From positions 364,208-428,207 of the forward strand of contig LBWK01000001.1 in assembly GCA_000993565.1 (NCBI GenBank): a stretch of DNA of 64,000 bases, written 5' to 3'. The position numbers are program-made. Numbering within the stretch: position 1 is the stretch's first letter; every line of letters begins with the position of its first letter. This DNA is from a candidate division WS6 bacterium GW2011_GWF2_39_15. Its GTDB lineage: Bacteria > Patescibacteriota > Dojkabacteria > SC72. Below, piece after piece: positions 51,001-54,000 of this stretch.

Positions 51001-54000
51001 AAACCAAACCTCGAAAAGGTTGGAAAGTTAACAATGGAACAAGTAAAAAGAATTGCAGAAACTAAAATGGTAGACCTTAATACTAAAAACATCGATCAGG
51101 CAGTAAAGATAATTGAAGGTACTGCAAGACAGATGGGTGTAGAGGTTGTTAAATAATCTTAAAGATATTATAAACATGGCACGCAGAGGTAAGAAATACG
51201 TAAATACAGCAAAGAAAATCGAGACCAAAGAATATACTTTGGAACAGGCTTTAAAGGTAGTAAAGACAGCATCATACAGTAAATTCGGAGGTTCAGTTGA
51301 ACTACATGTTGCAATTTCTCTTCCAAAGGATAAGGATGCTAAATCTATAAAAGGAGCAGTATCCCTTCCCCACTCTACTGCTAAGAATGTTATAGTTGCA
51401 GTATTCGCCACGCCTGAGAATGCAAAGGCAGCACTAGCAGCCGGAGCAGACAAAGCAGGTCTTGAAGATTTAGTAAAAGAAGTTCAAAGCGGGAAAATAA
51501 CATTTGATGTTGCAATTGCAACTCCAGATGTTATGGCAAAGATTGCGGTACTTGGAAAAGAATTAGGTCCAAAAGGACTTATGCCTAATCCAAAAACCGG
51601 AACAGTTACAGCTGATGTTGCAAAGACCGTAAAAGAATATAAACAGGGTAAGATGACATTTAAAGCTGATGAACAAGGCGGTATTCATATTGCAGTAGGA
51701 AAATTGGATCTTGATGATGCAAAGATTGTAGAGAATATTAAAGTTGCAGTAACGGCAATTGAAGAAGCCATTGGCAAATCATTTTCAACTGTAACAAGAC
51801 GAACATACTTAGCTCCTACAATGGGTAAGGCAGTAAAGTTCAAATACGAATAATACCGCTGACTAAGTCAAATTAGCTACCCCATAGTTTTATATCTCGC
51901 TCTATTTGTAGTATAATTATCGATCATTGCGATTAATAATCGTATGATGATCTTTAACACTATTTACTTATATAGTGTCTGGAAACAGCACTAAGTAAAT
52001 ATCACAACTACATATCACGTGTAATCTCTAAATTATTTAACGAGACACGGAGTATACAATCCTAAGAAATTGTATATTTGTGTTTCGTTAAACCAACCCG
52101 TGGGGTTGGTACATTAGGGCTATAAGCCCGGGAGAAAAAATGTTCAAGAAGTTCGTTCGTTCGGTTTTTTTCGTGCTCGTTGCAATCAGCCTTTTTTTGG
52201 TCGCCTGCGGGCCTCAGACAAACCCGACGCCTGTTTCGGGGGAAGAGAAAGAAACACCTCCCCCTCCAGGCACTTTGGTAAATCTGACACCGACTGAAGA
52301 AACCCCAGTCGCAGCTGAAATCCAGGCAACCCTCGCTCCGGACTCTTGCAGTGGTTGGTACACTGGATTCCCGGCAACGTGGTCTAAACTCGCGATCGAT
52401 AGAGCCGATAGACCAGCGGCCTGGGTTTCAAATCCTATTTTGCTCACTGAAATCGTCTCCTACCCGAATGGTGCCATGGTTCTCATGGTTCAGAGTGACG
52501 ATTTTGTCACTCCATTCGTTATACGAGACCTTTCTGGGAAGGAGCAAAAGGCAGATCCAAAGGACCTGCTGGAACAAATTAATTCCCTCATGGAGGGTAA
52601 GTTCTCCCGAATCGGGCTCATTAACCTGACGTTCGCCGCAACCATGAAAGCGTTTTGCAATGAGGATCCTATGATCCCGTTATTTGTTGCAAAGCAAATC
52701 ATGATATCGGAAAAGAACGAAAGGGAAATGAGAGATGCGTTCGAGTTTAACTGGGATGGTGAGAAAGTTACCATCTCTGACTGAATGCATCCTTCGGGTC
52801 ACGTGACCATGTAGTTATGCCGGAGGGTTTGCTCAAAACAAGCCCTCCGGAACACGTGTAATAACAACTTCCCTTTACAATCCCTCCAATATCTAGTATC
52901 ATCCCTACAGCCTAAGAAACATGGTACAAAGATAAATCCATGCGAGGCAAAGAAAGATTTCTAAAATAAATATATAAAGATATGTCTAAGAACAGAACTC
53001 AAAAAGGAGAACTATTAACCCAGTATCTTGATATGATCAAGAGCAACTCAGGTTATCTTCTCGTTGATACCAGCGGTTTAGACACCTTAACTATCACAAA
53101 CTTCAAGATGAAGTTAAATGAAGTCGGTGCCAACTATGCAGTTATCAAAAACTCGGTATTTAAGATAGCTCTTCAGGAAACAAATCAGCCTGTTGAGACA
53201 CAAACATTTGACGGCCCTACAGCTGTAATCTCATACTCGGAAGACCCTACAGCAGCAGCAAAGCTTGTTAAAGAACTCCAGAAAACATCTGAGAAATTTA
53301 ATGCAAAACTTGGAACAATTAATGGGTCTTACATAAACGCAGACAGAGTTATGCAATTGGCAGACATTCCTTCAAGAGAAGAACTCCTTGCAAAACTTCT
53401 TGGATCAATGAACGCTCCTCTTACAGGTGTTATGAACGCAATTACAGGAAACATCAGAGGATTCACTATGGTACTTAAGCAGCTTTCAGAAAAAGAAGCT
53501 AAGTAATAAATATTTAATTTATATAAATATATAGCAATGGCAGACACAAAAGCATTACCAGAGCTATCAGCAGAAGCTAAAAAAGTTCTAGAGGCTGTAG
53601 AGAAAATGACAGTTTTGGAACTTGCTGATCTTGTCAAAGTAATGGAAGACAAGTTTGGAGTATCCGCAGCAGCCCCTATGGCAGTTGCAGCAGCTCCAGC
53701 AGCCGCAGCAGCTGAAGTAGAAGAGAAAACAATGTTCAACATTGTTCTTCAAGATGCAGGTGCAAACAAGATCAATGTAATCAAGGTTGTAAGAGAGATT
53801 ACAGAACTTGGACTCAAAGAGGCTAAGGATCTTGTAGACGCAGGTGCAGGAACAGTTCTCAAGGAGAATGTTCAGAAAGATGCAGCTGAGGAAGCAAAGA
53901 AGAAGTTTGAGGAAGCAGGTGCTAAAGTAGAACTTAAGTAACCCTACTCTATTCTTTGAATATGGAAAGGCCGGAGAAATCCGGTCTTTTTATTTATCTC

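Follow-up and report, generated by a model that had tools for sequence, protein, structure and literature searches.

A Dojkabacteria-specific lipoprotein gene flanked by putative conserved RNA elements in the variable rplA-rplJ spacer

The window analyzed here is a 64,000-nucleotide (nt) stretch of the candidate division WS6 bacterium GW2011_GWF2_39_15 (Patescibacteriota; Dojkabacteria; contig LBWK01000001.1, positions 364,208 to 428,207), in which a lipoprotein gene lies between the ribosomal protein genes rplA and rplJ. On sequence comparison, this gene is a new member of a small, previously unnamed, Dojkabacteria-specific lipoprotein unit with putative conserved RNA elements, situated in a hypervariable spacer. 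The reading that we favor, namely an independent lipoprotein unit whose paired boxes would join the two ends of its mRNA within a spacer of variable content, is in part a model and is held with moderate confidence as a whole. A preliminary description of the same DNA had presented a foreign cassette with operators of its own that displaced the L10 leader; its observations were sound, and this interpretation was mostly wrong. Below, W denotes the genome of the window, L001 a duplicate contig of W, and the other L-numbers the loci of relatives.

The genes around the gap run rpmG, secE, nusG, rplK, rplA, gap, rplJ, and rplL. The gap spans 51854-52981 (1,128 base pairs [bp]), from the rplA stop at 51853 to the rplJ ATG at 52982, and its single convincing gene is an open reading frame (ORF) of 214 amino acids (aa) with the lipobox LVAC, confirming the reported lipoprotein gene. 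Such an extra gene stands where a spacer alone is usual, since most bacteria and several close relatives have ∼130 to 190 bp there, and the lipoprotein gene recurs in this context in no fewer than three independent samples. The gene and its borders are as follows.

51176-51853 (+), rplA (L1), left border of the variable spacer (Pfam Ribosomal_L1 on an identical contig; tblastn)
52140-52784 (+), lipoprotein gene, 214 aa, with a signal peptide carrying the lipobox, a linker, and a mature domain
52982-53506 (+), rplJ (L10), right border (Pfam Ribosomal_L10)

The N terminus of the protein (MFKKFVRSVFFVLVAISLFLVAC) is a canonical lipoprotein signal, MFKKFVRS-VFFVLVAISLF-LVAC (basic n-region, hydrophobic h-region, and a lipobox conforming to the [LVI][ASTVI][GAS]C pattern of Lgt/LspA substrates, with Cys23), followed by a Pro/Thr-rich linker (approximately aa 24-68) and a ∼145-aa mature domain with the conserved cysteines C70 and C173; the ribosome-binding site (RBS) is GGGAG at 52130-52134. 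Neither Lgt nor LspA was found among the Pfam matches of the window proteins. The elevated G+C content (GC) noted earlier was borne out, the ORF having a GC of 0.490 and a third-codon-position GC (GC3) of 0.530, against a GC of 0.391 for the window and 0.385-0.387 for rplA, rplJ, and rplK and a GC3 of 0.23-0.34 for the neighboring ribosomal protein genes. No other 645-nt stretch of the window is as GC-rich (sliding-window mean 0.391, standard deviation 0.025), and among 66 ORFs this one ranks first in GC (z = 3.6) and in poorness of codon-usage fit to the window. Three of the spurious ORFs overlapping it are antisense, as had been reported (63, 77, and 94 aa), but the fourth (92 aa) is on the same strand in another frame. 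The RNA of the ORF is also more structured than shuffled sequences (z = -4.1, compared with -2.3 for rplA and -1.5 for rplJ).

Searches of 5.8 billion clustered proteins, together with an exhaustive HMMER run over 1.8 billion representatives, returned only the protein itself, and nothing beyond weak lipoprotein signal-peptide matches was obtained from Pfam, PHROGs, and NCBIfam, from PDB sequences (with the single sequence and with a 4-sequence profile), or by tblastn against phages and plasmids. Relatives were sought at the locus itself, with loci being collected via L1 in GTDB genomes, via exact-protein look-ups of L10 homologues, and via a DNA pattern of the rplJ leader in metagenomes, the last of which retrieved nothing but the more distant clade and added no lipoprotein. 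A lipoprotein gene of similar size was found in the same spacer of three other Dojkabacteria lineages (L006/L071, L072, and L073/L074). These proteins share the lipobox, a Pro/Thr-rich linker, and a domain of ∼150 aa, and three cysteines, one of them that of the lipobox, are unchanged in all four family members. Aligned over its full length with a profile of the three relatives, the window protein gave an hhalign probability of 96.6% (E = 5.7e-10, 209 columns); blastp against the L073 protein gave an E value of ∼1e-5 over 234 aa, and the L073 and L006 proteins matched each other with E = 4e-14. Both the homologous protein and the shared locus, with its homologous leader and 3' element, therefore suggest that the gene is a member of a small, fast-diverging, previously unnamed family that has so far been seen only in this Dojkabacteria spacer, an assignment that carries the same moderate confidence as the favored reading of which it is part. 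In L072, four tandem 24-nt repeats (385-482) encode the lipoprotein linker (TEAPV.EA units), the length of which appears to change by repeat expansion.

Each family ORF is GC-rich relative to its own genome.

W: lipoprotein ORF GC 0.49, genome/locus GC 0.39
L006: lipoprotein ORF GC 0.47, genome/locus GC 0.39
L072: lipoprotein ORF GC 0.49, genome/locus GC 0.335
L073: lipoprotein ORF GC 0.52 (GC3 0.63), genome/locus GC 0.32

The GC3 of the family ORFs is 0.47-0.63 in genomes with a GC3 near 0.15-0.35, and the boundaries are sharp at the ORF. Because every member deviates in this way, high GC is a property of the family's ORF and not a sign of recent arrival. The horizontal acquisition from a GC-rich outside donor proposed earlier was thus not borne out, a homologous gene with similarly raised GC being present at the same locus in relatives. 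In its full form, this explanation invokes a recent import from a GC-richer organism, complete with CACGTG operators bound by a transcription factor, and we consider it improbable. It would account for the extreme GC and codon usage of the ORF, for the absence of the lipoprotein from the closest relatives (L003, L004, L063, and L064), for the clustering of three CACGTG sites (see below), and for the position of the third site 15 bp upstream of the rplJ -35 element. However, the homologous, equally GC-rich cassettes of the three other lineages come with homologous AT-rich leaders and 3' elements, no homologue outside the locus emerged from the protein, phage, and plasmid searches, the CACGTG sequence is not conserved while its pairing is kept, and no regulator is linked to the cassette. 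Region-wide GC-biased gene conversion was also considered for the composition of the ORF and was judged unlikely, the adjacent coiled-coil gene in the same spacer having a GC of 0.23.

The CACGTG sites reported near 52015, 52797, and 52852 are all present (at 52016, 52800, and 52853) and locally clustered, three of the five sites in the window falling within 840 bp (P = 0.005 for random placement of five sites). Two of the reported GC-rich palindromes are perfect, GGTCACGTGACC (52797-52808) over 12 bp and ACACGTGT (52852-52859) over 8 bp, but the one at 52016 is limited to the 6-bp core. The GC hairpin described between the last two sites likewise exists, with arms of 12 nt rather than 8 bp (52820-52831 and 52839-52850, 11/12 complementary, 7-nt loop); the 3' hairpin folds with -31.8 kcal/mol (z = -3.6), and no U-tract follows the inner stem-loop at 52820-52850. 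Across 404 kb of Dojkabacteria loci, CACGTG occurs 4 times against a Markov expectation of 3.8, and restriction-type avoidance was rejected as an account of this rarity, which equals expectation and follows general ACGT/CpG depletion. In the same 404 kb, all CpG-containing 6-bp palindromes (CACGTG, CGTACG, GACGTC, CGATCG, and ACGCGT) are found at about one-tenth of the base-composition expectation, a scarcity that reflects the general ACGT/CpG depletion because Markov expectations account for it.

On comparison with the relatives, the three "palindromes" are three mutually complementary boxes, designated a, b, and c, which look alike in W because CACGTG is self-complementary. They lie within the following layout (UTR, untranslated region; MFE, minimum free energy).

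51889-51917 (+), predicted promoter of the lipoprotein unit, TTTATA-17-TATAAT (consensus scan, 10/12 matches)
51921-51951 (+), first leader hairpin, at the predicted transcript start (MFE fold)
51975-51991 (+), GAAA-tetraloop hairpin GUGUCUG-GAAA-CAGCAC (motif and RNAalifold)
52003-52021 (+), box a, CACAACTACATATCACGTG, containing CACGTG site 1 (inverted repeat between flanks; full-transcript folds)
52036-52092 (+), long AT-rich 5' UTR hairpin, 13 + 10 bp (fold)
52093-52134 (+), two short GC hairpins (52093-52109 and 52117-52129) and the GGGAG RBS (sequence, fold)
52800-52819 (+), box b, CACGTGACCATGTAGTTATG, with CACGTG site 2 inside the 12-bp palindrome (complementarity)
52820-52850 (+), GC-rich inner stem-loop, CCGGAGGGTTTG / CAAGCCCTCCGG (fold; arms shared with relatives)
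52853-52862 (+), box c, with CACGTG site 3 (52853-52858), 3' arm of the outer helix (local fold)

Upstream of the gene, W, L072, and L073 share an aligned promoter (TTGAAA-17-TATAAT in front of the L072 and L073 homologues), the GAAA-tetraloop hairpin, and box a, and the motif GTCTRGAAAYAGCA occurs nowhere but ahead of the lipoprotein genes of W (with its duplicate L001), L072, and L073. This predicted promoter, whose position is conserved in the related cassettes, agrees with the earlier view of the gene as a cassette. The similarity between the promoters of W and L006 was set aside as uninformative taken alone because the -10 region of rplJ likewise reads TAGTAT(A/C)AT. Compensatory G-C to A-U changes were observed in the tetraloop hairpin (RNAalifold; 3 sequences), and the MFE fold of 51920-52150 reached -76.3 kcal/mol (z = -8.6 versus shuffles). 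The long AT-rich hairpin is not conserved in sequence, and L072 has one of similar size at the same place. In L006, an a-like 17-mer, 76% complementary, lies downstream of the coiled-coil gene.

On the 3' side of the stop codon, all four lineages share box b, the GC-rich inner hairpin, and box c. Approximately 10/12 positions of the inner hairpin arms are identical with those of L006, L072, and L073, and the outer b:c helix, in which the local fold of W pairs 52800-05 with 52853-58, is kept despite different sequences (8 bp in L072, 11 bp in L073, and 9 bp in L006). The arms read as follows.

W: box b arm CACGUG, box c arm CACGUG
L072: box b arm AUACGUGA, box c arm UCACGUAU
L073: box b arm AACACAUGACA, box c arm UGUUAUGUGUU
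L006: box b arm AAGUAGUGA, box c arm UCACUACUU

At the DNA level, the homologous cassettes spell the boxes TACGTG/CACGTA, CACATG/CATGTG, and TAGTGA/TCACTA, so that mutual complementarity alone is retained. The boxes are therefore unlike a protein operator, which would be expected to keep its sequence, and the proposal of operator-like CACGTG sites was not sustained.

Box b together with the adjoining "bulge" sequence forms the reverse complement of box a: 17 of the 20 positions of box b pair with box a, while the first 6 nt of box b complement box c. No inverted repeat linking the 5' and 3' flanks scores better than the a:b match in any of the three lineages, each of which spells it in its own way (p = 0.006-0.008 for W, 0.0015 for L072, and <0.0005 for L073). 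In predicted folds of the full transcripts of these three lineages (949-1052 nt), 16-18 a:b pairs were present in the MFE structure, with ∼15-17.6 a:b pairs expected in the ensemble and b:c pairs amounting to ≤0.3. The predicted helix would close a loop of ∼780-870 nt; it lies ∼115 nt upstream of the start codon, and box b starts a few to ∼15 nt after the stop codon. The complementarity between the leader and the 3' end is thus kept through compensatory change in three lineages. Moreover, CACGTGTAAT at box c is a 10-bp direct repeat of 52016-52025, which arises because boxes a and c both complement box b; a 10-mer repeat within 1.1 kb is near chance (p = 0.05), and its interpretation as a target-site duplication was rejected on this ground and because the promoter and conserved leader lie outside it.

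An inverted repeat in this position could also act as DNA. If boxes a and b were recombination sites, flipping the 780-bp segment between them would unlink the gene from its promoter and produce phase variation of a surface antigen, and surface lipoproteins are classic phase-variable genes. The 17-22 bp inverted repeats do flank exactly the variable segment (RBS and ORF) with conserved sequence outside, and a concerted change of both arms between lineages is what recombination sites would be expected to show. Yet one orientation was found in every assembly recovered from the four lineages, and no recombinase domain was detected at 1-45 kb or 46-58.8 kb of the window. In addition, indels interrupt the arms of W and L072 at one shared internal position, a feature more easily accommodated by an RNA helix than by recombinase half-sites, and the direct repetition of box a in box c would invite deletion. 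We thus regard an inversion switch as a doubtful explanation. Still less probable, to a degree that we would be surprised to see it hold, is a non-autonomous mobile cassette, in which a and b would be the terminal inverted repeats of a transposase-less element with a passenger gene. A 20-bp inverted repeat bracketing a single foreign-looking gene has that appearance, but there is no target-site duplication beside the repeats, the element is single-copy in the window and at all loci, and it always occupies the same locus. Conserved sequence also continues outside both repeats (the leader hairpin on the left, the GC hairpin and box c on the right), which makes them internal to the conserved unit. 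An integron gene cassette, which would be a promoterless ORF followed by attC with RYYYAAC / GTTRRRY core sites and adjoining intI and attI, was likewise rejected, given the unit's own conserved promoter, the lack of GTTRRRY at the 3' arm, and the presence of a single unit rather than an array; no integrase was found within ±6 kb of the gene or at 1-45 kb of the window.

According to the favored reading, the gap would hold a separate transcription unit, encoding a lipoprotein anchored in the membrane and exposed on the surface and arranged as promoter, leader with the GAAA-tetraloop hairpin, box a, variable hairpins and RBS, GC-rich ORF, box b, GC stem-loop, and box c. In the finished transcript, a would pair with b in a helix of 17-20 bp (about two turns) with a small internal loop, tying the 5' leader to the 3' end, while the local b:c helix would represent an alternative conformation that extends the 3' stem-loop. 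Such an a:b helix could stabilize the mRNA, silence it, control its translation, or offer a site for double-strand-specific processing. It would also separate the lipoprotein message from flanking or read-through ribosomal protein transcripts, with which the absence of a terminator after rplA in W and of a U-tract at the 3' hairpin is consistent.

An RNA-level role of the boxes appears most likely, and its suggested effects on stability, translation, or processing are drawn by analogy with hok and icaR. In the hok mRNA of hok/sok, the tac-fbi helix joins the 5' leader to the extreme 3' end, with a local fold as the alternative; hok encodes a toxin, is accompanied by an antisense RNA, and undergoes defined 3' processing. 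The lipoprotein unit would resemble it in having a long-range helix between leader and 3' end that loops out the coding region and in its alternative local fold, but it has no antisense partner, and its predicted helix lies ∼115 nt upstream of the start codon. Phage morons, which are single extra genes with their own promoter, a 3' hairpin, and deviant GC, often encoding surface proteins or lipoproteins, are similar in that a single deviant-GC gene with a promoter and 3' hairpin is placed between operon-organized genes; unlike them, the lipoprotein unit has no prophage context and keeps one chromosomal locus across lineages. Base pairing of the 5' and 3' UTRs controls icaR of Staphylococcus aureus, in which the 3' UTR pairs with the 5' UTR of the same mRNA to give a double-stranded substrate (PMC3868564), as may happen here; in contrast, the icaR 3' UTR covers the Shine-Dalgarno sequence, whereas box a is far from the RBS and box b is ≤15 nt from the stop codon.

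A more elaborate proposal, which we put forward as speculative and rather unlikely, is that the boxes form a conserved riboswitch-like device, peculiar to this cassette, whose a:b stalk excises or masks the message in read-through transcripts, linking the surface protein to ribosome synthesis, and that the ORF-limited GC is actively maintained. Such maintenance could proceed via allele replacement between the conserved boxes or via selection on RNA structure; GC3 in the ORF reaches 0.63 where the genome has 32% GC and a neighbor gene 23% GC.

Several points weigh against the favored reading. For instance, the homology signal for the mature domain alone is weak (hhalign E = 1.2e-3, probability 19%), as is the pairwise comparison with L006 (p = 0.026), and because this domain-only homology is modest, the case for a family depends in equal measure on synteny and the non-coding flanks. 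AlphaFold models were unusable, with pLDDT (predicted local distance difference test) values of 39 for the full length and 36 for the domain with a 2-row alignment. Nor do all members share the layout: the L006/L071 copy has lost box a and kept only the 3' element, and its reading frame is shifted between the signal n-region and the lipobox. The covariation is drawn from three or four lineages, and a DNA-level role of the inverted repeat would give the same covariation. The a:b helix is predicted, as are the promoter and the transcript ends, and neither ribosomes nor co-transcriptional kinetics are taken into account when 1-kb RNAs are folded thermodynamically. Finally, the sustained high GC3 of the lipoprotein ORF is unexplained by this model. 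The frameshift (L006 4847-4890) falls between the start MLTKVLSYIFVG and the lipobox LLALSAC and is the same in the identical DNA of L071, a separately deposited assembly, representing either a decaying copy or a shared error.

Downstream of the lipoprotein unit, the elements that serve rplJ are in place.

52874-52902 (+), rplJ promoter TTTACA-17-TATCAT (-35 at 52874-79, -10 at 52897-902; TTGACA-17-TATCAT in relatives)
52910-52948 (+), rplJ leader, kink-turn-like hairpin GCC-UAA-GAAA-CAUGG...CCAUG-C-GA-GGC (covariation)

The supposed displacement of the L10 leader by the insertion can therefore be discarded, the promoter and the covarying leader being intact, and the autoregulation of rplJL should be untouched because both are kept downstream of the insert. 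By BLASTN, only 52891-52981 of the W gap, in this promoter/leader region, matches other lineages. Among the 32 distinct Dojkabacteria sequences collected from upstream of rplJ, the promoter and leader are conserved in 31, L011 being the exception. Compensatory changes at 6/8 pairs of an 18-sequence alignment support both helices, the 13-nt A-rich loop is conserved, and the bulged base is C in most sequences and U or A in a few. The minimal L10(L12)4 site consists of a kink-turn followed by a bulged C (PMC3616713), and the arrangement GCC-UAA-GA...C-GA-GGC directly upstream of rplJ fits this motif. With the L10(L12)4-binding leader (RF00557; PMC3616713), it has in common the kink-turn with tandem G-A/A-G pairs, the bulged C, and a capped hairpin upstream of rplJ; it differs in being much shorter and in having the 13-nt A-rich loop in place of an internal loop with two adenosines. 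No Rfam match, including to L10_leader (RF00557), was obtained in the gap at the gathering score or at E ≤ 10, and the compact Dojkabacteria rplJ leader may deserve an Rfam-type model of its own.

The rplA-rplJ spacer measures between 128 and 1578 bp across the 35 loci that have both rplA and rplJ (33 relatives plus W twice), while the other junctions of the ribosomal protein cluster stay tight. Besides the lipoprotein unit, its contents include the following.

Essentially empty: L003, L007, L013, L067, L075, L076
Small coiled-coil gene on the opposite strand: L004 4731-4976 (-), L063 3401-3754 (-), L078 2229-2468 (-), L006 5606-5878 (-), L072 1084-1497 (-), L073 359-604 (-)
Major facilitator superfamily (MFS) transporter: L064, L068
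ORF of 327 aa, NAD-dependent epimerase-like by eye, with no family search run: L032, L035, L048, L054
Candidate toxin-antitoxin pair, judged by eye, two adjacent minus-strand ORFs of 104 and 101 aa: L047

Small Cys-rich proteins are encoded in many spacers, and other ORFs of no known kind occur as well. The spacer thus probably represents, with the moderate confidence given to the favored reading as a whole, a gene-turnover hotspot at an operon boundary with the lipoprotein unit as one of many occupants. Where hotspots lack mobile elements, their gene turnover proceeds through homologous recombination in flanking core genes (PMC5635113), and the Dojkabacteria spacer resembles these core-gene-flanked hotspots in that one interval holds differing accessory genes by lineage without recognizable mobile elements. 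It differs from them (PMC5635113) in lying inside the nusG-rplKA / rplJL cluster and in that the comparison is class-wide and not within species.

The route by which the unit reached W bears on its origin only and is compatible with the favored mechanism. Lateral transfer within Dojkabacteria, from the L072/L073/L006 clade or a relative into an ancestor of W via recombination in the rplA/rplJ flanks, is a serious possibility that we rate somewhat short of an even chance. In a neighbor-joining tree of L10 plus L12, the lipoprotein is monophyletic in one clade (L073, L006, and L072) with W alone in a second; vertical descent would need approximately seven losses, so that parsimony on the lipoprotein favors transfer, and the route is supported by hotspot theory (PMC5635113). 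DprA and RecR are encoded in the window as well, at 39864-40502 (-) and 20202-20819 (-), respectively, which fits a capacity for DNA uptake and recombination. On the other hand, protein identity is ∼21-27% both within and between clades, a divergence that carries no signal, and the coiled-coil gene is present in both clades (L004 and L063; L078, L073, L006, and L072), which favors an old shared content of lipoprotein and coiled-coil genes with frequent loss. Both histories fit, i.e., one intra-class transfer or an old lipoprotein and coiled-coil content followed by approximately seven losses.

According to the current view, Dojkabacteria and other bacteria of the candidate phyla radiation (CPR) live attached to other cells, and to our knowledge their surface proteins are almost wholly uncharacterized. 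A lineage-restricted, fast-diverging lipoprotein with a predicted conserved regulatory RNA is thus a candidate for a host- or phage-facing surface factor. The 5'-3' complementarity, if it acts as predicted, would add a rare bacterial example of mRNA end-pairing, and an ORF-limited GC excess held in several AT-rich genomes runs counter to the equation of deviant GC with recent transfer. Moreover, a gene-turnover hotspot inside the most conserved gene cluster of bacteria matters for the use of ribosomal protein synteny in binning and phylogeny.

Among the other occupants of the spacer, the coiled-coil protein has the N terminus MLS..D/E.Q.I and a GC of 0.23 in the two gene copies measured (L072 and L073); its gene often adjoins the lipoprotein gene and is absent from the window. 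A Cys-rich protein with the pattern C-x2-C ... C-x2-4-C (e.g., CCVCNLAECTAPDCPAANG) is encoded just upstream of rplJ in the more distant clade (L030, L043, L044, L047, L052, L057, L060, L008, L010, and L058) and is possibly a zinc-ribbon tied to this locus. Beyond rplL, the genes rpoB and rpoC do not follow (window 53942-58100; L064, L067, L068, L072, and L073), and the stretch between rplL and a conserved pair of seven-transmembrane (7TM)-transglutaminase and ATP-grasp genes is also variable, being occupied, depending on the lineage, by a TrmB-like regulator, an FmrO methyltransferase, a glyoxalase, Cyt-b5, or FemAB. In the window, a 129-aa ORF without a Pfam match lies 1 kb downstream of rplL (54976-55365, +); its GC3 is as atypical as that of the lipoprotein ORF (0.531), and in codon fit it ranks second from the bottom in the window. 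Four consecutive ORFs of 318-402 aa without Pfam matches (13308-17750, +) lie in another of the window's few GC-elevated stretches.

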